Shown: positions 1 through 9,888 of the stretch, in pieces
Position numbering within the stretch: position 1 is the first letter of the stretch
Layout of the letters: the number at the start of each line of letters is the position of its first letter
Virus record (IMG/VR): IMGVR_UViG_2529292908_000017
Coordinates: 1 to 9,888 of that record
Length of the DNA stretch: 9,888 nt
From: a virus
Taxonomy: Duplodnaviria > Heunggongvirae > Uroviricota > Caudoviricetes
Reading direction: 5' to 3' (one strand)
Position numbers and translations under genes: made by a program
The notes under the pieces: model-generated
Told to the model about the DNA's origin: nothing
Databases searched by the model: none
Seen by the model: only the letters and a program-made list of their open reading frames with translations

Positions 1-1242
1 ATGGCGAGAAAAACACACCCATTAACCACAGTGCAGATCAAAGCAGCCAGACCAGCGCAAAAGGAGTACACCCTGCAGGACGGCGGAGGGCTTTTTCTCC
101 TGGTCAAACCGTCTGGATCAAAACTCTGGAGATTTTCCTACTACCGACCATCGGACAAAAAAAGAATATTGCTGAGTTTTGGATCGCTTGAAGATGTTTC
201 CCTGGCTGATGCCAGAAAACGCCGTAGCGAGTACAGGACGTTAATCAGTGCCGGAACTGACCCGCAGGACCACGAGAGGCAAAAAAGAGAGACAGAGGCC
301 CGAAGACAAGGGAACACGTTCGAAAATGTGGCGGCGGCATGGTACCAGGTGAAAATCAGCCAGAATCTGGCCCCCAACACGATTAAAGACATCTGGCGTT
401 CGCTGGATAAATATGTATTCCCGTTCATCGGCAACACGCCAATAGATACCCTCACCGCCCGAAGGTTCGTTGAAGTGCTTACCCCCATCAAGGAGCGCGG
501 CAACCTGGAAACACTCAAGCGGGTTTTACAGCGCGTTAATGAGGTAATGGATTACGCCGCCAACAGTGGGCTGATTGATGCCAATCCGGCTATGAATGTG
601 CGTAAGGCGTTTCCCTCACCTGTAAAAAAACATATGCCAACAATCCGCCCCGAACAGCTGCCGGAGCTTATGCAGGCTTTATCAGTATCGGCAACAGAAC
701 GGCAGACCAGATTACTGATTGAATGGCAGTTACTGACCGTAACCCGTCCCGCCGAAGCGTCATCAACGCGGTGGGATGAAATCAACCTGGACGCGAAGCA
801 ATGGACGATACCTGCCGGACGCATGAAGATGCGCAGGGATCACGTTATCCCGCTTTCCGGTCAGGCTATGGCGGTGCTGGAGGCCATGAAACCAATCAGC
901 CACCACCGCAATTACGTTTTCCCAAGTCTGAAAGACCCACAGCAGCCGATGAACAGCCAGACAGCTAACGCAGCATTGCGGCGTATGGGATTCGCTGGCG
1001 TGCTGGTGTCTCATGGATTACGCGCCATATTCAGCACAGCAGCGAACGAGGAAGGATTCGAGCCGGACGTAATAGAGGCGGCACTTGCCCACGTCGACAC
1101 CAACGAAGTTAGACGGGCATACAACCGGAGCAACTACATAGAAAAACGCATCGTGCTGATGCGCTGGTGGGGCGAATTTGTCGAGGCTGCGGCGACGGGC
1201 GTAACCCTCGCCAGTGGTAAAAGGGGTATCCGAGCCGTGTAG
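1..1242 (+). CDS. int: Tyrosine recombinase / integrase, P4-type (satellite / genomic-island family)
   Basis: 413-aa ORF starting at window base 1. N-terminal arm-type region (GGGLFLLVKPSGSKLWRFSYY) typical of P4-family integrases; C-terminal catalytic region with HGLRAIFST (H-x-x-R) and RAYNRSNY (tyrosine nucleophile region). Recognition by eye, no search. Confidence 0.9.
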   Translation: MARKTHPLTTVQIKAARPAQKEYTLQDGGGLFLLVKPSGSKLWRFSYYRPSDKKRILLSFGSLEDVSLADARKRRSEYRTLISAGTDPQDHERQKRETEARRQGNTFENVAAAWYQVKISQNLAPNTIKDIWRSLDKYVFPFIGNTPIDTLTARRFVEVLTPIKERGNLETLKRVLQRVNEVMDYAANSGLIDANPAMNVRKAFPSPVKKHMPTIRPEQLPELMQALSVSATERQTRLLIEWQLLTVTRPAEASSTRWDEINLDAKQWTIPAGRMKMRRDHVIPLSGQAMAVLEAMKPISHHRNYVFPSLKDPQQPMNSQTANAALRRMGFAGVLVSHGLRAIFSTAANEEGFEPDVIEAALAHVDTNEVRRAYNRSNYIEKRIVLMRWWGEFVEAAATGVTLASGKRGIRAV

Positions 1243-1319
1243 CTGTACAGAAAACCAGTAAAAACTACGAAAACCATGTAAAACCGTCGTATAATTGCAT
1301 CAAATTTAACGACAAGGCC

Positions 1320-1571
1320 GTGAAACATGAAACCGTTAAGATGCAAAAAAATATCAGATGCAATTGCGACGGGCTGCAACTGGCCCTGATGGTTCAGCAT
1401 GAATTTTGGTCAACCTACGATCCGGAGGACAGGACGACGGCCCCATCAAAAAAACAGGTAGTAGATTTTCTGGTATCCCGTGGCGCTTCCAGAAATCTGG
1501 CGGTAAGTATTGATAAGGTCGTACGTCCGGCATCTATGAAGATCGGAGGCAGGCCCAAAAAATGGCGGTAA
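1320..1571 (+). CDS. Hypothetical small protein (83 aa)
   Basis: ORF with AAGG about 10 nt upstream of the ATG, ending 10 nt before a strong intrinsic terminator. A TATAAT hexamer lies at about 1290-1295. No family recognised. Confidence 0.45.
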   Translation: MKHETVKMQKNIRCNCDGLQLALMVQHEFWSTYDPEDRTTAPSKKQVVDFLVSRGASRNLAVSIDKVVRPASMKIGGRPKKWR

Positions 1572-1580
1572 CAATCCTGG

Positions 1581-1606
1581 AAGCGGCAGAAATGCCGCTT
1601 TTTTTA
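1581..1606 (+). terminator. Rho-independent terminator
   Basis: Stem AGCGGCA / TGCCGCT (7 bp) with GAAA loop followed by a T6-7 run, immediately after the 1320..1571 ORF. Confidence 0.7.
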
Positions 1607-1629
1607 TAATTCCATTTCAAATCATCAAT

Positions 1630-1735
1630 ATAAAAAACGGTGTATACCGTTTAAAAACGGTGGGAACTGTTTTTACCCATATCCGATGATTTACCGTATT
1701 TGTCACCGGAATACACCGGATTCACAAGGTAAATC
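1630..1735 (+). promoter_or_regulatory. Putative promoter/operator region upstream of alpA
   Basis: 10-bp direct repeat AAAAACGGTG at 1633-1642 and 1653-1662; inverted half-sites ACGGT-N4-ACCGT at 1637-1650; direct repeat CACCGGA at 1704-1710 and 1714-1720; AAGG RBS at 1726-1729 before the ATG at 1739. Function inferred. Confidence 0.3.
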
Positions 1736-1738
1736 ACG

Positions 1739-1944
1739 ATGGAAGCAATCAGAAAAATTATCTTTCGCCAGGAAGTAAAAAAATTATCCACATCAAGGCA
1801 GACAGCACGCTGCAAAGCATGATCAACGCCGGAGAATTTCCGCAGGGTTTTCGCGTTGGTTTACGCCGTCGCGGATGGTATGAGGATGATGTGTTGGCCT
1901 GGCAGAAAGAACGCGAACAGGAAGCACGCGGAACGGCTGCTTAA
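1739..1944 (+). pseudogene. alpA: AlpA-family (prophage CP4-57-type) HTH regulator, apparently disrupted by a 1-nt frameshift
   Basis: Frame from ATG 1739 reads MEAIRKIIFRQEVKKLSTSRQTARCKA then stops (TGA 1820-1822). The -1 frame continues LQSMINAGEFPQGFRVGLRRRGWYEDDVLAWQKERE to TAA 1942-1944. Joined, they match the AlpA pattern (TG-x-SR-x-T-IY-x-hh-x-G-x-FP ... G-W-x-E-x-D-h-x-x-W). Length 206 nt is not a multiple of 3; shift localised to about 1803-1811. Confidence 0.6.
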
Positions 1945-2092
1945 CGGGTATCACAGATATGACAAACACGAAAAAAGCGGCCCCGATATGGAGCCGCCTT
2001 TCTGAACAATTAACCCGCTGCGCCTTATGTGTATGTGATCCCAAACATAAGCACGGGGATGATAGCCGCTATCAGGCTGGTGGGCAATGCAA

Positions 2093-2266
2093 TCAGTCTG
2101 GTTCAGTTCGTTGCCATACCTGCAATGAGCGCTTTTCCCTATACTCTTTAAGGAATTGCTCAAGGGCAAAAGCACATGGTGCGAATCTTTCTGATTCATG
2201 CTCTATCTTTCTGCGCCGTCTTTTCCGTGCCGGTGATAATGTTTTGGTCAATTCTTTATCGGTCAT
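2093..2266 (-). CDS. Hypothetical small basic protein (57 aa from second ATG; 62 aa from first)
   Basis: Minus-strand ORF MTDKELTKTLSPARKRRRRKIEHESERFAPCAFALEQFLKEYREKRSLQVWQRTEPD, with AGGA 7 nt upstream of the internal ATG (+ coordinates 2264-2266). Composition is protein-like, unlike the overlapping 186-aa + ORF. No homologue recognised. Confidence 0.3.
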   Translation of the reverse strand: MTDKELTKTLSPARKRRRRKIEHESERFAPCAFALEQFLKEYREKRSLQVWQRTEPD

Positions 2267-2692
2267 TGTGTTGTCCTGCATAGCAATACGCCGTAATACC
2301 TCACACCACGGCGCTGGTGATGGTTACTCCTGCTCTTTGGCCTTGCGCCGCTGGCGGCGTTTGATCTCACCTTTAACGGCAGTAACTATAAATTGCGCCT
2401 TGCTTTCACCTTCATCTAAATTTTTTCTAAGTCTGCAACAACATCATGCGGGAATCTGGCATTTAACTGTTGCGACTTATTATTTGTTGAACCTGTTGCC
2501 ATTACTGAATCCTCTCTAAGTTGGTGCGATTCAGTATACACAAAAAAAATTTCAGAGAAAGGCTTGAAGTGCGATTCACTTACTGATAGGTTAAAAACGA
2601 ATGGTGCGATGCACCAAACAACAACGCCCCGCAGTGGTGGCACACATGCAGGGCGTCTAACCACCAACGATAACGAGAGTATCGAGGTAGCT

Positions 2693-2896
2693 ATGAGAAA
2701 TCATACCACACACCCGCAAGGGCGGGACTCGCACGACCTGAATAAATACATCTGGCGTTTTATCGCCCTGAGCACGGCACAACCGCGCGTGATTACCATT
2801 GAGGCCACCAGCGAACAGGAAGCACGCCTGCAATCCCCGGCTGGCTGCGTGATGGTATTCGCTGCCCGTATTCGCCAGGGGTCACATCATGCGTAA
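2693..2896 (+). CDS. Small protein, paralogue A of a tandem pair; possibly Ash / Icd-like family (unverified)
   Basis: ATG 2693 preceded by GAGG (2684-2687). C-terminal motif YIWRF ... EATSEQEARLQSP ... FAARIRQGSHHA is repeated in the next gene, with synonymous third-position differences (CGT/CGC, CGC/CGT). The longer TTG start at 2564 in the ORF track has no credible RBS. Confidence 0.5.
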   Translation: MRNHTTHPQGRDSHDLNKYIWRFIALSTAQPRVITIEATSEQEARLQSPAGCVMVFAARIRQGSHHA

Positions 2897-3575
2897 AAAC
2901 CGCTTGCAAAAAATTATCACGGGGCTGTATGCTTCCCCCGTCGCCCACATGGCGACCGGGTTTAGCAGCCTGAATACATCTGGCGGACAGCCGCCCACAT
3001 CCGATAAGCGGTTTTTTTGTGTCCGTAAACCTACCCATACCCGCATTATGGCGGGGCGTAACGGGGGAGCCTTTGTGCTCGCTGGTTTCCAGATGACCAG
3101 TCTGCTAACCCTGTTACGTCTCGCCACCATGTTTAGCAGCGTAGTAGCGAGACTCCTTAAAATTCATCTGGGAGCCTTTCACATGGCTGTATTCGCACGC
3201 CCTTATTTTGTCTGGCGCTTTATGCAGTGCCTGACAGACAGTATTGCAATATTCACCGTTACCGCTGCCACTGAGCGCGAAGCACGTGCACAGCTGCCGC
3301 ACGCACATCTTATTTTTGTCGCCCGTATTCGCCAGGGGGGGGGAGTCATGCATAAAATACCCTTTGATGTTCTTGTTCATTCTGAAAACGCATTAATCCG
3401 CGCAAAGGAAATGGACGCATTACTACTTAAGTTAATTGATGTGCCGGAAAGTGGCGATGAATCTGATTCAATGATGTTTTCTGCCGTGCGTACGCTATTA
3501 ACGCCTGTTATTAATGAATTAAATACAGTGATGGCAATTCACGAGAATAATAAAGCGCAGCACAACGGAGAATAA
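2889..3575 (+). CDS. Composite ORF: N-terminal segment of unknown nature, then paralogue B (from internal ATG 3183 with GGAG RBS), read through a G9 tract into a 75-aa C-terminal segment
   Basis: Continuous 228-aa ORF; ATG 2889 overlaps the stop of the previous gene (ATGCGTAA). Residues from 3183 (MAVFARPYFVWRF ... TAATEREARAQLP ... FVARIRQGGG) parallel paralogue A. G9 tract at 3335-3343; with G10 the paralogue would end ...QGGGSHA* (compare A: ...QGSHHA*) and a separate ORF would start at ATG 3348. Confidence 0.4.
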   Translation: MRKNRLQKIITGLYASPVAHMATGFSSLNTSGGQPPTSDKRFFCVRKPTHTRIMAGRNGGAFVLAGFQMTSLLTLLRLATMFSSVVARLLKIHLGAFHMAVFARPYFVWRFMQCLTDSIAIFTVTAATEREARAQLPHAHLIFVARIRQGGGVMHKIPFDVLVHSENALIRAKEMDALLLKLIDVPESGDESDSMMFSAVRTLLTPVINELNTVMAIHENNKAQHNGE

Positions 3576-3580
3576 AAAAC

Positions 3581-3880
3581 ATGAAAAATAAAAATTCTGG
3601 CGTTACTGCCAGCGGCCCCGCTCGTCCTGAATTTATGAACGGCGATATTTACCGCGATAAATATGGCGGCATGGTAACGATTAAAGGCGTGGCAGAACGG
3701 CGCATCACCTACCGTCGTGAAGGCTACGAATATGATTGCGTGATGCCTGTTTATCAGTTTCGGCGTGATTTTTCTCTGGTACAGGCAGCGCCCCGCAGTA
3801 AACCAACCAGCAGGGAGAAAGCACGCGCCAATATTCAGGAAATAAAAAAGATGCTTAACGTATTCAGGGGTAAAAAATGA
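3581..3880 (+). CDS. Hypothetical protein (99 aa), translationally coupled to the primase
   Basis: ORF with GGAG upstream; its TGA stop (3878-3880) overlaps the primase ATG (3877-3879) as ATGA. Protein-like composition; family not recognised. Confidence 0.6.
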   Translation: MKNKNSGVTASGPARPEFMNGDIYRDKYGGMVTIKGVAERRITYRREGYEYDCVMPVYQFRRDFSLVQAAPRSKPTSREKARANIQEIKKMLNVFRGKK

Positions 3881-5625
3881 AACTGGCACCGAACGTAAAA
3901 AAACAGCCACGCGGAATAAAACACAAAGACACAGAGGTAATTATTTTCGCGGGTAGTGATGCCTGGTCGCACGCGAAACAATGGCAGGAGCAGGATGGCC
4001 CCGCATCCGGCGATAATGTGCCGCCTGTGTGGCTTGGGCCAAATCAGCTTGCCGAACTTGATGCACTGAAAATTGTTCCGGATGGGAAAAAGCGCGTAAG
4101 GCTGTACCAGGCCGGAGAACTGGATTTGGTGGAGACCAAAAAGATTGGTCAGAAGCTGGCGGCAGCAGATATTCAGGACGCAAATTTTTACCCCGAAGGA
4201 ATGCACGTCCAGAAGTGTGAAAACTGGCGGCGCTATCTGAATGCTGAGCGTGAAAATATTGCCGCAGGGCTTACCATGCCGGAGCAGAAAAATACGCAAC
4301 TGGCACAAATGGCAGACAGTGAGCGCGCGCAGCTGCTTGCCGAGCGCTTTGATGGCGTTTGTGTGCATCCTGAAAGTGAAATCGTTCACGTATGGCGCGG
4401 CGGGGTATGGTGTCCGGTCAGCACAATGGAGCTGAGCCGCGAAATGGTGGCGATCTATTCAGAGCACAGGGCCACTTTCAGCAAGCGCGTAATCAATAAC
4501 GCCGTGGAAGCGTTAAAAGTTATTGCCGAACCAATGGGCGAGCCGTCCGGCGATTTGCTGCCGTTCGCCAATGGTGCGCTTGACCTGAAAACGGGGGAAT
4601 TTTCCCCGCACACGCCGGAGAACTGGATCACCACGCACAACGGCATTGAGTACACGCCACCAGCACCAGGGGAGAACATCCGCGATAACGCGCCAAACTT
4701 TCATAAATGGCTTAAGCACGCAGCCGGAAAAGACCCGCGCAAGATGATGCGTATATGTGCCGCGCTGTACATGATTATGGCGAACCGGTACGACTGGCAG
4801 ATGTTTATTGAGGCCACCGGAGACGGCGGGAGCGGTAAAAGTACATTCACGCACATAGCCAGCCTTCTGGCAGGGAAACAGAACACGGTAAGCGCTGAAA
4901 TGACATCGCTTGATGATGCTGGTGGACGTGCGCAGGTTGTCGGGAGTCGTCTTATCGTCCTGGCTGACCAGCCGAAATATACAGGCGAAGGAACGGGCAT
5001 CAAGAAAATCACGGGCGGTGACCCCGTGGAAATTAACCCGAAATATGAAAAGCGTTTTACGGCGGTAATCAGGGCGGTGGTGCTGGCGACCAACAACAAC
5101 CCGATGATATTCACCGAACGGGCCGGAGGTGTGGCACGTCGTCGCGTGATTTTCCGTTTCGACAATATCGTCAGTGAGGCCGAAAAAGACAGGGAGCTAC
5201 CGGAAAAGATTGCGGCTGAAATCCCTGTGATTATCCGCCGATTACTGGCGAACTTTTCCGCCCCTGAAAAGGCACGGGCTTTACTCATTGAACAGCGTGA
5301 CGGTGATGAAGCACTGGCGATAAAGCAGCAAACGGATCCGGTTATTGAGTTTTGCCAGTTCCTGAATTTTCTGGAGGAAGCGCGCGGCCTGATGATGGGG
5401 GGCGGTGGCGATTCAGTGAAGTACACGACCAGGAACAGCCTTTACCGCGTCTATCTGGCGTTTATGGCATACGCAGGCAGGAGCAAACCGCTAAACGTAA
5501 ATGACTTTGGCAAGGCTATGAAGCCAGCCGCGAAAGTTTACGGACATGAATATATTACGCGGAAAGTTAAGGGAGTAACGCAGACTAACGCAATAACAAC
5601 AGACGATTGCGACGCGTTTTTATAA
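3877..5625 (+). CDS. Phage/plasmid primase-helicase, P4-family C-terminal domain / D5-like SF3 NTPase (satellite pri-rep type)
   Basis: 582-aa ORF with AGGGGT RBS. Walker A P-loop ATGDGGSGKST, followed by motifs typical of D5 / P4-alpha-type helicases (LIVLADQP Walker B-like, VVLATNN). Immediately followed by an iteron array. N-terminal ~300 aa not assigned. Confidence 0.88.
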   Translation: MKLAPNVKKQPRGIKHKDTEVIIFAGSDAWSHAKQWQEQDGPASGDNVPPVWLGPNQLAELDALKIVPDGKKRVRLYQAGELDLVETKKIGQKLAAADIQDANFYPEGMHVQKCENWRRYLNAERENIAAGLTMPEQKNTQLAQMADSERAQLLAERFDGVCVHPESEIVHVWRGGVWCPVSTMELSREMVAIYSEHRATFSKRVINNAVEALKVIAEPMGEPSGDLLPFANGALDLKTGEFSPHTPENWITTHNGIEYTPPAPGENIRDNAPNFHKWLKHAAGKDPRKMMRICAALYMIMANRYDWQMFIEATGDGGSGKSTFTHIASLLAGKQNTVSAEMTSLDDAGGRAQVVGSRLIVLADQPKYTGEGTGIKKITGGDPVEINPKYEKRFTAVIRAVVLATNNNPMIFTERAGGVARRRVIFRFDNIVSEAEKDRELPEKIAAEIPVIIRRLLANFSAPEKARALLIEQRDGDEALAIKQQTDPVIEFCQFLNFLEEARGLMMGGGGDSVKYTTRNSLYRVYLAFMAYAGRSKPLNVNDFGKAMKPAAKVYGHEYITRKVKGVTQTNAITTDDCDAFL

Positions 5626-5636
5626 TTTTTTGCAAT

Positions 5637-5865
5637 GTCTGTCTACCCTGTCTACCTGAGTAAAGAAAAATACATTTAATTCAGTATATTAACTTAGGTA
5701 GACAGCCTTTTTTCACTGTCTACCTACTATCTACCCTCTCTACCTGATTTTACCTGAATCAGACAGGGAGGTAGATACGGGGTAGATAGTGGATAAAAGC
5801 ACTCTACCCCGCTGAAAGCCGCGCCATTACTGGCATGAGAGCCAGTAAGGTAGATAAGGTAGACA
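5637..5865. repeat. Iteron array, putative replication origin
   Basis: About 11 copies of the heptamer GTCTACC / GGTAGA(C/T) in both orientations (e.g. 5641-5647, 5650-5656, 5697-5703, 5718-5724, 5770-5776, 5781-5787, 5849-5855, 5858-5864) around an AT-rich core (about 5657-5695), directly downstream of the primase-helicase gene. Confidence 0.65.
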
Positions 5866-5913
5866 AGGGGAGGCACAACTCAAAACTTTTTAAACGAGGG
5901 GGTAAAAATAAAA

Positions 5914-6171
5914 ATGCGCACATCAGGAAAACTTAATAATCAGAAGAAGCAGCATAACCGCGCCATTGACCTTACAGAGCACTGGCTGAGAGTGGCGATA
6001 AAAATCATCGACCGCAACACGGGGGAAGGATACGCGAAAGCACATCCCGACCTGATAAGCGCATTCATGACCACGGCGGCAGCAAACTTTGCCACGCTGA
6101 CAGAACGGGAGATTGCCGAAGCGGAACAGGTGACAACCATCAACGTTAAAACCGGAGAGCAGACAGCATGA
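5914..6171 (+). CDS. Hypothetical protein (85 aa), coupled to ssb
   Basis: ORF with GAGGGGG upstream; its stop overlaps the next ATG (ATGA at 6168-6171). No family recognised. Confidence 0.5.
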   Translation: MRTSGKLNNQKKQHNRAIDLTEHWLRVAIKIIDRNTGEGYAKAHPDLISAFMTTAAANFATLTEREIAEAEQVTTINVKTGEQTA

Positions 6172-6590
6172 CAGCACAGATAGCGGCTTACGGGCGGCTG
6201 GTGGCTGACCCGCAGTTAAAGACCACCAGCAAAGGGACACAAATGGCGATGGCGAGTATGGCGGTTCCCCTGCCATGCAGCCAGGCAGATGACGGAACGG
6301 CGACGATGTGGTTATCTGTCCTGGCGTTTGGCAGACAGGCCGACGCACTGGCAAAACACCACAAAGGCGAACTCCTGAGCGTGGCGGGTAATATGCAGGT
6401 GAGCCAGTGGACAGGCCAGAACGGCGAAACGCGGCAGGGCTGGCAGGTTATCGCAGACAGTGTAATCAGTGCCAGAACGGCGCGACCGGGCGGCAAAAAA
6501 GGTCAACAGGGGCAGGCTACTGACGCACTGAACAGGGCAAAACAACAGGCGGGAAATGATGATCCGTACGGGGATAACATACCGTTTTAA
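6168..6590 (+). CDS. ssb: Single-stranded DNA-binding protein (SSB-like OB fold with acidic C-terminal tip)
   Basis: 140 aa. N-terminal OB region aligns by eye with E. coli SSB (YGRLVADPQLK vs VGNLGQDPEVR; WLSVLAFGRQADALAKHHKGE vs [21 protein letters not shown]). Gly/Gln-rich linker and C-terminal DDPYGDNIPF resemble the SSB tail DDDIPF. Confidence 0.78.
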   Translation: MTAQIAAYGRLVADPQLKTTSKGTQMAMASMAVPLPCSQADDGTATMWLSVLAFGRQADALAKHHKGELLSVAGNMQVSQWTGQNGETRQGWQVIADSVISARTARPGGKKGQQGQATDALNRAKQQAGNDDPYGDNIPF

Positions 6591-6606
6591 GCAACGAGTA
6601 ACAGAG

Positions 6607-6628
6607 GCCGGAGCAATCCGGCTTTTAT
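6607..6628 (+). terminator. Rho-independent terminator after ssb
   Basis: Stem GCCGGA / TCCGGC with GCAA loop followed by TTTTAT. Confidence 0.65.
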
Positions 6629-6861
6629 CAGTTGAGTCCGTCACACTACGCAAAAAAAAGCCGGAATATTCCGACCCTTTCATCACCAAAGAGAATAATT
6701 TATGTCTTTGAACTTGTAACGCTGTACAGAATGACACGTAACGCCGGATAAATAAACGAAGATTGAAACTTTGCACACTATTGCATAGCAATGCATAAAG
6801 ATGCCAAACAAGGCAGATGATAAAATTAACGCGACACTTTTACTAAGTATTAAGAGGTTAT

Positions 6862-7902
6862 ATGAGTGATTTATATTCGCCAGCCATGTTAATACAGGTT
6901 GTTAATGCCGAAGATATTCAATGGCAGATTAATTCTTTATTTATAAACCTGTTTTTTAAGCGAGTCGTTACATTTGAGACGCGGGATATTGCGCTTGATA
7001 TTATTGACGATCCAGACATCCCGATGGCTGCATTTTGTTCCCCTATGGTTGGTAGTAAAGTCTCACGCGATGAAGGCTACGAATCAAAAGTAATTCGCCC
7101 TGGCTATATGAAGCCAAAAAGTAGTATCGACCCAAATAAAATAGCCGTTCGTCAACCAGGCGTATCACCTGAACAATTCAATGCATATTCATCACGCAGT
7201 TTCAAAATAAAGCGAGCGTTAGTAAGACAAGCGCAGGCAATTCGTGCGCGTATTGAGTGGCTTGCTGTTCAGGCGGTTACAACGGGGAAAAATATCATTG
7301 AAGGCGATGGAATTGAACGTTATGAACTGGACTGGAATATAAAACCACAAAATATTATCACGCAGTCCGGCGGCACGGAGTGGAGCGGTAGAGATTTATC
7401 AACATTTGATCCAAACGATGACATCGAAGAGTACGCAGAAATCAGCGAAGGTACTACAAATATCATCGTAATGGGCCGCAACGTATGGAAAAAATACCGC
7501 GCCTTTAAAGCAGTAAAAGATTGCCTTGATACTCGACGGGGATCTAATTCCATTCTTGAAACGGCCCTGAAAAATCTTGGGGATTCTGTAAGCTTCAAGG
7601 GTTACGTTGGCGATGTTGCTATTGTGGTATATAGCGGACGTTATACCGACGAGGACGGCAAAGAAAAATATTTCCTTGATCCTGATTTGATGGTGCTTGG
7701 CAACACATCATTACAGGGCATCGTTGCCTACGGTGGCATTCAGGATCCTGAGTTAATCAGAATGGGGCTGACTAAAGCCGAACTTGCGCCGAAAAATTAC
7801 ATCGTACCAGGTGATCCGGCTATTGAATATGTGCAGACGCACAGCGCACCGCAACCAATACCGGCCCGCATCAATCGTTTTGTTACCGTTCGCATTGGTT
7901 AA
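6862..7902 (+). CDS. Major capsid protein, phage lambda gpE family
   Basis: 346 aa with AAGAGG RBS. Long colinear matches to remembered lambda gpE: NIITQSGGTEWSGRDLSTFDPNDDIEEYA (lambda NITQSGGTEWSKRDKSTYDPTDDIEAYA); FKAVKDCLDTRRGSNSILETALKNLGDSVSFKGYVGDVAIVVYSGRY ... MVLGNT (lambda FKAVKEKLDTRRGSNSELETAVKDLGKAVSYKGMYGDVAIVVYSGQY ... MVLGNT). Confidence 0.9.
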   Translation: MSDLYSPAMLIQVVNAEDIQWQINSLFINLFFKRVVTFETRDIALDIIDDPDIPMAAFCSPMVGSKVSRDEGYESKVIRPGYMKPKSSIDPNKIAVRQPGVSPEQFNAYSSRSFKIKRALVRQAQAIRARIEWLAVQAVTTGKNIIEGDGIERYELDWNIKPQNIITQSGGTEWSGRDLSTFDPNDDIEEYAEISEGTTNIIVMGRNVWKKYRAFKAVKDCLDTRRGSNSILETALKNLGDSVSFKGYVGDVAIVVYSGRYTDEDGKEKYFLDPDLMVLGNTSLQGIVAYGGIQDPELIRMGLTKAELAPKNYIVPGDPAIEYVQTHSAPQPIPARINRFVTVRIG

Positions 7903-7911
7903 GGGGGAGCA

Positions 7912-8253
7912 ATGGCTACTCATTACACTGAACTCATGGCTGGCACTGAAGCACTGGTTACTACGTTGGGGATATTTTCAGCTAATAAAGGGGTAATTCC
8001 TGCATTTACGCCACTGATGCAAGAAGATGCAACTGGTGCACTGGTGGTATGGGATGGAACGAGCGCAGGCAAAGCTGTTTATGTTTCCGCTGTACAAATC
8101 GATACAGCGACAAAAACGCAGGCTCAGGTTTATAAAACCGGCGTCTTAAATGTTGATGCTCTGAACTGGCCTGAGTCTGTAACACAACTATCAGCAAAAG
8201 TTGCTGCGTTTGTTGGCTCAGGTATTTCTGTTCAGCCGCTGGCACGTGTGTGA
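7912..8253 (+). CDS. Head decoration protein, phage lambda gpD family
   Basis: 113 aa with GGGGGAG RBS. Matches remembered gpD: TPLMQEDATGALVVWDGTSAGKAV (lambda [24 protein letters not shown]), YKTGVLNVDALNWPE (YKSGTFRYEDVLWPE), AAFVGSGISV (TAFAGTAISIV). Confidence 0.85.
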   Translation: MATHYTELMAGTEALVTTLGIFSANKGVIPAFTPLMQEDATGALVVWDGTSAGKAVYVSAVQIDTATKTQAQVYKTGVLNVDALNWPESVTQLSAKVAAFVGSGISVQPLARV

Positions 8254-8262
8254 GGTACGAGA

Positions 8263-8607
8263 ATGATTGAAAGAGATAGTCAGCTACGAGAGCTATTAGA
8301 TATCGATGACAAAATGAGTTTAAGCGAGCGCCTTGTTGATATGGATCAGGTAGTGGAGCTTACAACCCTTAGCCGTCGCACATTGCTAAACCTTGAGGCT
8401 CGCGGAGAGTTCCCCGAACGCGTACAGGTTACGAAAGGGCGCAAGGCATGGTATTTAAGCGAGGTTGTTGCGTGGATTAACAACATTCCGCGCGCATCAA
8501 ATTATTGCCTTGTTCCCACCCCCGAAAAACCTGATGCGGCGTTATGCCTCAAGATTGAACGCGCCAGGCGTAATGCCCTGAAAGGACGCAATAAGTTGAT
8601 TGGTTGA
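8263..8607 (+). CDS. AlpA/MerR-like helix-turn-helix DNA-binding protein (114 aa)
   Basis: GAGG RBS. Central segment VVELTTLSRRTLLNLEARGEFPERVQVTKGRKAWYLSEVVAWI fits the AlpA / excisionase-type HTH pattern, with N- and C-terminal extensions. Lies between the decoration gene and cos. Confidence 0.65.
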   Translation: MIERDSQLRELLDIDDKMSLSERLVDMDQVVELTTLSRRTLLNLEARGEFPERVQVTKGRKAWYLSEVVAWINNIPRASNYCLVPTPEKPDAALCLKIERARRNALKGRNKLIG

Positions 8608-8631
8608 TGAAATTAGGGCCCGTTCTGGCTG

Positions 8632-8830
8632 GCGGGTCCTTTCCGGCGATCCGGCAGGCTACGGGGCGGCGACCTCGCGGTTTTTCGCTATTTATGAGCC
8701 TTTTCAGGGGGGTGGTGGTGGTTTTGTTGTTTGATCTATCTTTATGAATGAAAAGGGAAAGATGCAAGCAATACACCAACCTGAAGCAGTAATTAAGTTG
8801 GTGTATTAATGAAATCTCATCTGATGAACA
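8632..8830 (+). other. cos site 1 (+ orientation): lambda-like cosQ/cosN (cosN 8664-8675, GGGCGGCGACCT) followed by a divergent cosB-like region up to the terS start
   Basis: GCGGGTCCTTTCCGGCGATCCGGCAGGCTACG-GGGCGGCGACCT-CGCGGTTTTTCGCTATTTATGA is near-identical to the remembered lambda cos junction. Downstream lacks lambda R-site-like GAAACGACA elements but has an 11-bp perfect inverted repeat (8770-8780 / 8797-8807). Confidence 0.75.
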
Positions 8831-8837
8831 AAAAAAC

Positions 8838-9350
8838 ATGGCGAAAAGCTGCCGTGTAAGTGCGACAGCGTTCGACAAGTGGGGAGTAACTCCCGTTGAG
8901 CGTAAAGGCCGTGAGGCGTTTTATGATGTTGCCAGCGTGATAGAAAATAGGGTTAACAATGCAATTAGCCAGCTTATAAACGACAAAGGCGAGATTGACG
9001 ATGATGAACTTTTACGAGTCAGGATCAGATTACTGACAGCACAGGCAGAGGCGCAGGAACTTAAAAACGATCGCGATCGCGGTGACGTGATTGATACTGA
9101 GTTTTGCCTGTACGCGCTTTCAAAGCTGGCGAGTCAGATTTCATCAATCATGGACAGCCTCCCGCTTACTATGCAAAGGAGCTTCCCACAGATTACCCCC
9201 GCCATGCTGGATAGGCTTAAAAGGGAAGTGGTTAAAGCCTGTAATGCCAGTGCCAGAGTTGCCGACAACCTCCCACAGATACTGGCTGATTACTTGAAAG
9301 AAACAACCGGAAACGTACCGGAAAAGTTGCTACAGAAGAAAGGCGAGTAA
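8838..9350 (+). CDS. Terminase small subunit, lambda Nu1 family, with divergent N-terminal DNA-binding region
   Basis: 170 aa. C-terminal two-thirds matches remembered Nu1: LTAQAEAQELKNDRDRGDVIDTEFCLYALSKLASQISSIMDSLPLTMQRSFPQ (lambda LTRAQADAQELKNARDSAEVVETAFCTFVLSRIAGEIASILDGLPLSVQRRFPE). N-terminal ~45 aa only loosely similar. An upstream ATG at 8824 (MNKKTW...) is out of frame by 1 nt across an A7 tract. Confidence 0.85.
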   Translation: MAKSCRVSATAFDKWGVTPVERKGREAFYDVASVIENRVNNAISQLINDKGEIDDDELLRVRIRLLTAQAEAQELKNDRDRGDVIDTEFCLYALSKLASQISSIMDSLPLTMQRSFPQITPAMLDRLKREVVKACNASARVADNLPQILADYLKETTGNVPEKLLQKKGE

Positions 9351-9369
9351 CAGACGCGCAATTATTGAA

Positions 9370-9580
9370 CAAAACTGAGAAACGACATGAAAGCGTCATA
9401 AATCGCCATTTTAGATGATTACCGTGTCGTTTCTTTTTATTGTGTATCTATTTAAAAACAAATAGTTATGTTCGAGAAGTACCGACATGCTTTTTCCAGA
9501 AAATTTTTCATAAACAGATAAAAACCGCGAGGTCGCCGCCCCGTAACGGGTCCATAATTCCAGGAAGGACCCGACGACAC
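9370..9580 (-). other. cos site 2 (inverted): cosN at 9530-9541 with a lambda-like cosB (R3 / IHF-I1 / R2 / R1-like elements) on the terS-proximal side
   Basis: The reverse complement reads ...CCCGTTACG-GGGCGGCGACCT-CGCGGTTTTTATCTGTTTATGAAAAATTTTCTGG ... CGAACATAACTATTTGTTTTTAAATAGATAC ... AAAGAAACGACACGG ... CATGTCGTTTCTCAG, paralleling the remembered lambda left end (cosN, I1 IHF site CGTCATAACTTAATGTTTTTATTTAAAATACC, R2 GGAAACGACAGG, R1 CTGTCGTTTCC). No terminase gene follows in this orientation. Confidence 0.7.
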
Positions 9581-9606
9581 CAGACAATCAGAACGATGGG
9601 TGCACA

Positions 9607-9888
9607 ATGACAGAAGCCGAAATACTGGGATTAATCCGCCGTGCTGGTGGAATCAGCCAGCAGACTGACGAACAGGCCACGCAGCCGGACAGCGTGACAG
9701 CCGAAAATTATGCGCGTGTTGTTGCTGAGGTGATGCGCCGTGATGGTATCCAGCTTAATGATGTGGATATGCGCAACATACGGATCCGCGTTCTTGAAAT
9801 GCTGGCCTACCGTCGCCGCGTGCAGACGTACAGGGAAAAAGCAAAAATTACGTACCACTGGAAGAAGCCGGAGCGGTTACGGCGGTAA
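9607..9888 (+). CDS. Hypothetical protein (93 aa)
   Basis: Complete ORF ending at the last base of the window (TAA 9886-9888). Weak RBS. No family recognised; Arg-rich C-terminus. Confidence 0.45.
   Translation: MTEAEILGLIRRAGGISQQTDEQATQPDSVTAENYARVVAEVMRRDGIQLNDVDMRNIRIRVLEMLAYRRRVQTYREKAKITYHWKKPERLRR

Follow-up and report, generated by a model that had tools for sequence, protein, structure and literature searches.

A second AlpA-family gene inherited with the capsid cassette of a phage-inducible chromosomal island, and a candidate operator at the cassette promoter

The window analysed here is a stretch of 9,888 nucleotides (positions 1 to 9,888 of the IMG/VR record IMGVR_UViG_2529292908_000017; coordinates without a locus name refer to it), and it is an Escherichia coli-type phage-inducible chromosomal island (PICI). 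Besides the canonical alpA next to the integrase gene int (alpA1), this satellite encodes a second AlpA-like helix-turn-helix (HTH) protein, here called alpA2, which closes the capsid operon just before the cos site. Across related islands, alpA2 cannot be separated from the genes for capsid and decoration proteins or from an array of TTGCA repeats at their promoter, and it is independent of int, alpA1, the primase gene, cosB and terS, which encodes the small subunit of terminase. Together with the fold of the protein, this pattern suggests that alpA2 may be a dedicated transcription regulator of the satellite capsid cassette acting at the TTGCA array, a reading that is based on sequence comparison and to which we give an even chance of being right.

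The block in which alpA2 is inherited

The comparison covers 19 alpA2 loci (the window, L001, L003-L017, L061, L106 and L125) from Escherichia, Buttiauxella, Kosakonia, Superficieibacter, Kluyvera, Cedecea and Scandinavium; L001 is the island of E. coli MEW, and L002 that of E. coli Nissle 1917. In all 19 loci, the capsid gene, decoration gene, alpA2 and cos are contiguous and in this order, with intergenic gaps of 6-11 nt within the three-gene part. alpA2 is thus the last gene of a block composed of the TTGCA array, a lambda-E-like capsid gene, a lambda-D-like decoration gene, alpA2 itself and cos. In the window its ATG lies 9 nt past the stop codon of the decoration gene, and its own stop codon is 26 bp 5′ of cosQ (24-70 bp among the aligned loci, in every one of which cos follows). 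The gene sits 7 kb from int, after the decoration gene, and is not adjacent to int in any of the 19 loci, where that position is held by a separate gene. The main elements of the block in the window, together with the parts of the alpA2 protein, are as follows.

6771-6805, + strand: TTGCA array of four 5-bp units, candidate alpA2 operator at the promoter of the capsid operon
6818-6826, + strand: extended −10 element TGATAAAAT, read from the sequence and an alignment of relatives
6862-7902, + strand: major capsid protein, lambda gpE-like, 346 amino acids (Pfam Phage_cap_E, 3e-41)
7912-8253, + strand: head decoration protein, lambda gpD-like, 113 amino acids (Pfam HDPD, 2.6e-16)
8263-8607, + strand: alpA2, ATG to TGA, 114 amino acids
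8263-8328, + strand: alpA2 residues 1-22, N-terminal helix, less conserved and shortened here
8329-8478, + strand: alpA2 residues 23-72, AlpA-type winged HTH (PF05930, 8c3t)
8479-8607, + strand: alpA2 residues 73-114 and stop codon, C-terminal extension

While alpA2 is 56-100% identical among these loci, the genes around the block vary more widely, with integrases 22-100% and primases 42-99% identical. The integrases next to alpA2 cassettes target tRNA-Pro, the capsid gene E or the portal gene, and the gene adjacent to int is assigned to Phage_AlpA, to HTH_17 or to neither. On the other side of the block, terS is of the PICI type, of the lambda type or missing (38-98% identical where present), and cosB is either of the PICI type (TGGTGGTGGTGTTGTTGTT...) or of the lambda type (R3-like). 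In E. coli MEW and Nissle 1917, the counterpart islands adjoin tRNA-Pro and yejM. The window matches the Nissle island at 97-99% identity over 1-2354 and 8632-9888, and the MEW island at 97% identity over 3321-9357, making it a mosaic whose recombination boundaries flank the capsid-decoration-alpA2 block. Nissle and the model island EcCICFT073 carry another capsid cassette, termed cassette B here, which is 54-56% identical in protein; the published c1499 and c1501 primers match the Nissle locus exactly.

Homologs of alpA2 were found in Escherichia, Enterobacter, Citrobacter, Klebsiella, Salmonella, Pluralibacter, Trabulsiella, Scandinavium, Buttiauxella, Kosakonia, Superficieibacter, Kluyvera and Cedecea, four of the loci coming from a scan of GTDB genomes. 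The cassette is matched in 471 of 5,426 complete E. coli genomes (~9%), E. coli WP9-S17-ESBL-11 and M11957 having one of 99.9% identity, and a tblastn search of 50,697 phage records with alpA2 returned zero matches. Three islands that were candidates for carrying this capsid clade without alpA2 (H29, H32, H36) all turned out to encode the 127-amino-acid allele. Many alpA2 loci are helper-embedded PICIs, which have integrated into a lambdoid prophage at its capsid or portal gene (Tommasini, Mageeney, Williams; PMC10111431). Away from the tRNA-Pro site, most satellites with alpA2 (L003-L008, L011, L014-L017) are embedded in this way in an E-like capsid or portal gene, the prophage being lambdoid or P2-tailed, and several have defence-like cargo after cos (a CAP12-PCTIR TIR protein, a putative AbiC, DUF262 and DUF2971).

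A preliminary description of the window, made from its letters alone, had placed an AlpA-like HTH gene after the capsid genes and before cos1 and terS, and both the gene and its family assignment stand. Phage_AlpA (PF05930) matches alpA2 at 32.4 bits against a gathering cut-off of 21, from residue 23 to 72 and over profile positions 2-51 of 51, that is, over its full length; the same family is precomputed on most full-length homologs. At E ≤ 0.1, Pfam returns Phage_AlpA and HTH_17 only, with no match to PyocinActivator (PrtN), and no NCBIfam model matches. phrog_2790, labelled 'excisionase and transcriptional regulator', matches at 1e-37. In a PDB search the sole solved sequence relative is 8c3t (E = 5e-10), entered there both as an AlpA family protein and as the excisionase of GIsul2, on which a literature search returned nothing relevant. 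The extensions on both sides of the HTH, put at about 40 residues each in the preliminary description, are 22 residues at the N-terminus and 42 at the C-terminus in this allele; most homologs have 127 amino acids and an N-extension of 35, which is 13 residues longer than in the window.

In an AlphaFold2 model of alpA2 (mean pLDDT 76, with 85-89 over the winged HTH domain), a helix at residues 3-20 precedes the winged HTH at 23-73, and a poorly ordered Pro-rich linker leads to a C-terminal helix at 92-106. Foldseek superposes the model on 8c3t with a root-mean-square deviation of 1.0 Å over 52 columns and a target-normalised TM-score of 0.84, and the core also superposes on RdfS, BldC and Pukovnik Xis in the PDB, while the BFVD fold matches include viral AlpA proteins and phage regulators annotated as PrtN. 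As modelled, the domain has a MerR/excisionase-like winged HTH (wHTH) fold. The recognition-helix region TTLSRRT is invariant in a 14-sequence family alignment, and the C-terminal part has a conserved NIPR motif, the Pro-rich linker and a basic helix, LCLKxERxRR..GKxKLIG. The ratio of nonsynonymous to synonymous substitution rates (Ka/Ks) against a homolog of 76% identity is 0.14 for the whole gene, 0.07 for the wHTH, 0.10 for the C-terminal extension and ~0.5 for the N-terminal extension, the value for the C-terminal extension indicating that the tail is functional. alpA2 is therefore a real gene under purifying selection, in both the wHTH and the tail. Its extensions have no similarity to lambda Nu3, C, E, D, FI, W, B, A, Nu1, Xis, CII or Q.

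The TTGCA array and the proposed role of alpA2

The array in the window consists of units at an exact 10-bp period, TTGCA at 6771, TTGCA at 6781, ATGCA at 6791 and ATGCC at 6801, and relatives have three to four TTGCA units. A fixed-threshold scan of 248 kb on both strands found 13 arrays where 0.35 were expected from composition-preserving shuffles. All 13 lie 85-101 nt 5′ of a capsid ATG, with a single array per locus; none was found elsewhere in the 248 kb, in Nissle, or near cos, int or the element ends. Both the units and the −10 element are kept while the flanking DNA is poorly alignable, and the register is fixed, with the last unit ending 15-16 nt 5′ of the −10 hexamer in all loci. The extended −10 reads TGATAGCAT in most relatives versus TGATAAAAT in the window. 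The array spans roughly −63 to −29 and no −35 element is recognisable; a consensus sigma-70 scan of 6590-6850 likewise found no two-hexamer promoter, which is consistent with a factor-dependent capsid promoter. In the four most distant loci, the units degenerate to T(G/A)(C/T)A in the same register, and the alpA2 proteins of these loci differ both in the wing and where the recognition helix ends. Co-variation of protein and array is compatible with these data, the lineages in this sequence comparison being too few to serve as evidence.

Two other approaches to the array did not hold. When TTGCAC-N4-TTGCA is set against the sigma-54 consensus, the spacing is 10 bp rather than 11 and the −24 GG is missing. 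An unbiased scan of viral contigs for exact TTGCA-N5-TTGCA-N5-TTGCA gave a chance-level yield, in which alpA2 cassettes made up 3 of 120 loci; one match near a PICI-like integrase lies 5′ of the adjacent tRNA-like gene, outside the island.

The remaining products of the block, capsid and decoration, are structural, and a fold class that includes Xis, Cox, Vis and BldC reads direct repeats at helical periodicity. Since no other DNA-binding protein is inherited with the array, and since alpA2 has a fold that reads such repeats, we propose it as the regulator acting there. The array promoter and the capsid, decoration and alpA2 genes would form a single transcription unit. Several alpA2 monomers would bind head-to-tail on the three to four direct TTGCA units, one helical turn apart, and from this position would most likely activate the extended −10 promoter that lacks a −35, much as PrtN does at pyocin P boxes or P2 Cox at the P4 late promoter. 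With alpA2 at the end of the unit under its proposed control, activation would reinforce itself after the arrival of a first transcript. This transcript could come from read-through of the alpA1-driven replication operon or, in helper-embedded relatives, possibly from helper late transcription. The conserved basic C-terminal helix may mediate oligomerisation or contact with RNA polymerase. Among the binding sites initially considered for alpA2, the repeats at 1630-1735, the palindrome at 6662-6673 and cosB1 are not the best candidates, a place now taken by the array at 6771-6805. Of the three roles the preliminary description had floated, that of a late-gene activator fits best, owing to the capsid linkage and the promoter array; activation itself we infer, as we do the identity of the array-binding protein, the sign of regulation (activation or autorepression) and the source of the first transcript.

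Several points weigh against this proposal. The assignment of the protein to its site would follow from co-occurrence within a jointly inherited block, and because the block is inherited as a unit, linkage by descent is not fully separable from functional coupling. TTGC-N6-TTGC is formally a lambda CII site. The promoter region of cassette B, which comes without alpA2, contains a TTGCA palindrome, ATTGCAcaaaaTGCAAT, and one further copy upstream, so a factor common to both cassettes could read TTGCA. An extended −10 can fire alone, and unit 4 overlaps the −35 position, so that autorepression fits the geometry equally well. A positive-feedback activator placed 3′ of its own promoter requires a trigger that is unexplained. 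Finally, the capsid and decoration genes of EcCICFT073 gave no detectable phenotype (PMC6092414).

A broader version of the regulator proposal, which we consider quite unlikely, is that array, capsid gene, decoration gene, alpA2 and cos form a self-contained exchangeable cassette in which alpA2 locks capsid expression on and its basic tail might also couple cos-proximal satellite DNA physically to satellite-built procapsids. If this were true, the locking would act after the satellite leaves the helper late operon or the chromosomal site, and alpA2 would be a regulator with a second, structural or packaging role, for which PICIs have no described counterpart.

Alternative explanations and related systems

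The array could instead be read by helper CII, a host factor or alpA1, with the target of alpA2 lying elsewhere in the satellite, the helper or the host. The TTGC-N6-TTGC pattern equals the CII consensus and recovers pRE, pI and paQ in lambda, TTGCA occurs in the alpA2-less cassette-B promoter, and exact triple-TTGCA arrays arise by chance in large collections. However, the second TTGC of the lambda promoters is 13 nt from the −10 element, compared with 15-17 nt for the nearest satellite unit, an offset of 2-4 nt; for the best satellite units the distance is 25-37 nt, which places them one to three helical turns further 5′. The satellites also have three to four units where lambda has two repeats. 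As for alpA1, its family and allele vary among loci that keep the same array, and its own repeats differ. On this evidence a different reader is unlikely. Still less probable, and in our view decidedly unlikely, is an anti-helper function, in which alpA2 binds helper DNA or protein and favours the satellite capsid proteins, much as CapR of Vibrio PLE represses the helper capsid gene. Such a function would suit a family that is apparently restricted to satellites, as the search of phage records indicates, a linked satellite capsid that is only ~43-45% identical to that of the helper, and the many carriers that sit in the helper capsid gene (PMC10111431). It sits poorly with lambda, which has no triple-TTGCA array matching at 14/15 or better, with the helper flanks of the fetched loci, where none was found either, with lambdoid late genes, which have no internal promoter to repress, and with extensions unlike lambda head or packaging proteins.

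A packaging accessory, also suggested in the preliminary description, would act at or near cos1, where alpA2 would help terminase to choose, bend or terminate on satellite DNA, as IHF does at lambda cosB, the HNH protein beside HK97 cos or an Rpp-like partner of TerS. The cos-proximal position everywhere fits this idea. In fold, the wHTH falls into the MerR-like class that also contains the DNA-binding domains of Nu1 and RppC (the latter modelled on BldC), the terminase small-subunit domains 7lw0 and 7lwr are among the Foldseek matches, and alpA2 has an extra C-terminal helix, as does Rpp. Specific support is lacking, however. The DNA between the alpA2 stop codon and cosQ is not conserved across genera and no TTGCA-type array lies near cos; alpA2 persists through changes of the cosB type and through the replacement or absence of terS; the Nissle island combines an identical kind of PICI-type cosB, TerS and cos2 with a lack of alpA2; alpA2 has no sequence similarity to RppC, which the searched PDB copy includes; and Rpp genes lie 3′ of cos rather than 5′ (PMC9026076). 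Altogether, a packaging role appears quite improbable.

An excisionase for the satellite integrase, expressed late, would agree with the closest structure being the GIsul2 excisionase 8c3t, followed by RdfS and Pukovnik Xis, and with a PHROG label that includes 'excisionase'. A wHTH followed by a C-terminal tail also resembles lambda Xis, and the second AlpA-family gene of EcCIMP1 acts as an excisionase (PMC11773190). Yet alpA2 is 56-100% identical beside integrases whose identity ranges from 22 to 100% and whose attachment sites differ, which leaves the earlier suggestion of an excision accessory unsupported. Moreover, alpA2 never adjoins int or att, an alpA or HTH_17 gene already stands beside int, and no TTGCA array occurs near the element ends, with the caveat that TTGCA as the alpA2 recognition motif is itself inferred. 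We consider this role very unlikely. It is more unlikely still, to an extreme degree, that alpA2 is a back-up copy replacing a frameshifted alpA1 as master activator. Both proteins are PF05930 members and alpA1 is out of frame in the window, which is what the preliminary description had in mind with a functional substitute. The substitute role loses its support because relatives with an intact alpA1 (MEW L001, the helper-embedded L003-L006, and L014) keep alpA2 and because the two proteins are only ~40% identical in the HTH, with differences across the predicted recognition helix; their promoter repeats differ as well, and the frameshift may not be real.

The regulator proposal can be set beside several known systems. 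The AlpA of EcCICFT073 is a demonstrated activator of its own promoter (PMC6092414), and alpA2 resembles it as a satellite-encoded PF05930 wHTH protein expected on short promoter repeats. The two differ in place, since alpA2 ends the capsid operon beside cos while the canonical AlpA lies beside int at the head of the early operon, and in kind, alpA2 having ~40% HTH identity, conserved N- and C-terminal extensions and a candidate site of three to four TTGCA units. A second comparison is with PrtN, a positive regulator whose P boxes are four repeats of 10-11 nt, ATTGnn(n)GTnn(n), located 60-100 bp 5′ of the Shine-Dalgarno sequence (PMC4905994, citing Matsui 1993 and Sano 1993). PrtN is a small wHTH activator of phage-derived structural genes, the pyocin genes of Pseudomonas, and the conserved array proposed for alpA2 would be analogous to the P boxes. 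The gene for PrtN stands away from those it targets and is subject to a LexA-like repressor, whereas that for alpA2 is part of its proposed target operon. For Pseudomonas AlpA, considered as a model of a Q-like antiterminator, the comparison failed, as that protein is unrelated, being 21Q-like with eight helices and an HTH at its C-terminus (PMC9371919).

P2 Cox and P4 Vis, the multifunctional Xis-like regulators of the P2/P4 helper-satellite pair, are small wHTH proteins whose binding sites are direct repeats in helically spaced arrays. According to the position of these sites, they repress or activate late or early promoters of a phage or satellite; Cox acts at the P4 late promoter, and both are also excisionases encoded in the early or integration region. 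alpA2 differs from them in having no linkage to int or att. The best matches to the wHTH core are the GIsul2 excisionase (8c3t, 44% identity), RdfS (8dgl), Pukovnik Xis (4j2n) and BldC (6ama). These consist of 55-73 residues, that is, of the DNA-binding domain alone, to which alpA2 adds ~64 conserved flanking residues.

Rpp (redirecting phage packaging), a type of protein from E. coli PICIs, resembles alpA2 in being satellite-encoded, cos-adjacent and MerR/BldC-like in its wHTH with C-terminal helices, and BldC served as the DNA-binding template for the RppC domain (PMC6739421). Rpp, in contrast to alpA2 with its position 5′ of cos1, takes the place of terS 3′ of cos, and its wHTH is N-terminal without an N-extension. 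Neither phmmer nor the family profile of alpA2, run against the PDB, matched 6hlk or 6hn7 at E ≤ 10, although 6hlk is among the entries searched; a 35-amino-acid RppA fragment derived from published primers, with three residues guessed, matched 6hlk at 1.4e-9. EcCIMP1 offers a case of a second AlpA-family gene with a role unlike that of a master regulator. Its alpA_1 lies at the far island end on the opposite strand, resembles the helper Xis and can replace it (PMC11773190), while alpA2 is co-oriented, lies inside the capsid operon and is absent from the phage collection searched.

No paper describing alpA2 was found in a literature search; papers on helper-embedded PICIs put Phage_AlpA in the integration zone only, and typical E. 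coli PICIs are said to encode one AlpA (PMC11773190), a view that alpA2 corrects. alpA2 looks like an ordinary, if uncharacterised, member of the AlpA/Xis-like class of regulators, found in a context that is new and very consistent, and it advises caution, as an AlpA-family match in a satellite need not be a master regulator or an excisionase. Capsid and decoration genes are the late genes most often carried by Gram-negative PICIs (PMC6092414; PMC10111431), and a cassette with its own DNA-binding protein and a candidate operator offers a handle on when and why these capsid genes are expressed.

The first alpA, the cos region and cassette B

Outside the features listed above, the island is laid out as follows.

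1-1242: integrase
1739-1944, + strand: alpA1, the first, canonical alpA beside int; the Pfam match covers the C-terminal half only
3877-5625: D5/P4-type primase
6168-6590: SSB
8634-8646 and 8664-8675, + strand: cos1, lambda-type, with cosQ-like GGGTCCTTTCCGG and cosN core GGGCGGCGACCT, respectively
8809/8838-9350, + strand: Nu1-like terS (Pfam Phage_Nu1, phrog_57)
9530-9541, − strand: cos2, an inverted second cosN core, reading AGGTCGCCGCCC on the + strand
9607-9888: 93-amino-acid phrog_1561 protein

The capsid and decoration proteins of the window are 43% and 41% identical to lambda E and D, respectively, and the terS product is 37% identical to lambda Nu1. A C4 antisense RNA (Rfam RF01695, 72.7 bits against a gathering threshold of 45), a member of the P4 CI-type immunity RNA family, occupies 3044-3131 on the + strand, between alpA and the primase gene.

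The frameshift noted earlier in alpA1 is present: compared with the 99%-identical Nissle sequence, one A has been lost from an A8 run at ~1777-1783. terS of the window also lacks one A from an A8 run (8829-8836), here relative to both MEW and Nissle, which breaks the frame from the ancestral ATG at 8809 and leaves an open reading frame that picks up at 8838. In a census of all indels, these two lesions are the only coding frameshifts of the window. Sequencing error in a homopolymer, slipped-strand variation or true decay may account for them. A homopolymer error is possible because both are the loss of a single A from an A8 run, a pattern which, judged from the sequence, suggests sequencing error or slipped-strand variation more than gene decay.

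The repeats 5′ of alpA1, ACCGGAAT and ACCGGATT at a 10-bp period plus AAAAACGGTG twice, are unlike the TTGCA units. A palindrome, GCCGGAATATTCCG (6660-6673), stands 3′ of a terminator-like hairpin after ssb, and its half-sites resemble the ACCGGAAT / ACCGGATT repeats at 1705-1722. Lying ~100 bp 5′ of the TTGCA array, it may be a site for the first AlpA, although the motif count alone is not significant.

At the other end of the block, an intrinsic terminator between alpA2 and cosQ was considered and rejected, the fold being no better than that of shuffles (z = −0.45); a clear hairpin followed by a T-run occurs at this place in L011 only. In the EcCICFT073 model island two cos sites are documented, of which cos1 is essential (PMC6092414, PMC6739421), and cos2 is also found in the Nissle island. 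The gene after cos1 (8838-9350), when set against c1503 of EcCICFT073, is a full-length Nu1-like gene, matching Phage_Nu1 up to position 162 of 164, and is not an Rpp; rppA of EcCICFT073 differs from the post-cos gene of both Nissle and the window. This lineage may therefore use its own TerS with helper TerL rather than redirect helper TerS. The PICI-type cosB opens with a G/T-rich tract, GGGGGGTGGTGGTGGTTTTGTTGTTTG (8703-8735), which is kept in all loci with a PICI-type Nu1-like TerS and is replaced by a lambda R3-like sequence in loci with a lambda-type Nu1 or no terS. Just 5′ of terS, at 8770-8807, is a perfect 11-bp inverted repeat, AATACACCAAC / GTTGGTGTATT, with arms 16 nt apart, the left arm of which recurs as a conserved CAATACACCCACCTG where other loci have a PICI-type cosB. 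The repeat is a candidate for either a cosB/R site of the satellite TerS or a regulatory hairpin. A 69-amino-acid 'hypothetical protein' of RefSeq (phrog_11159, equivalent to c1502; L001 11314-11523) overlaps cos1, and its frame in the window (8600-8747) is shortened to 44-47 amino acids. What is conserved there is probably the cos sequence, not a gene.

In cassette B, the slot before cos holds an unrelated 137-amino-acid protein, c1501 (phrog_1999; L002 11991-12404), to which alpA2 has no similarity. c1501 matches positions 494-567 of 583 of the head-maturation-protease family phrog_53 weakly (2.7e-9) and may be a remnant of a Nu3-like scaffold. The cassette has an additional 68-amino-acid open reading frame before the capsid gene and, in Nissle, no direct TTGCA array. 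A near-consensus sigma-70 promoter was considered for it and dropped, as the scan found none and TTGCAC matches TTGACA at 3 of 6 positions. Over L002 10260-10345, ATTGCAcaaaaTGCAAT and TTATAAT are followed by a terminator-like hairpin with a T-run (10317-10336), and then come the 68-amino-acid open reading frame and the capsid gene, a promoter-then-terminator layout that is, by analogy, reminiscent of antitermination control.

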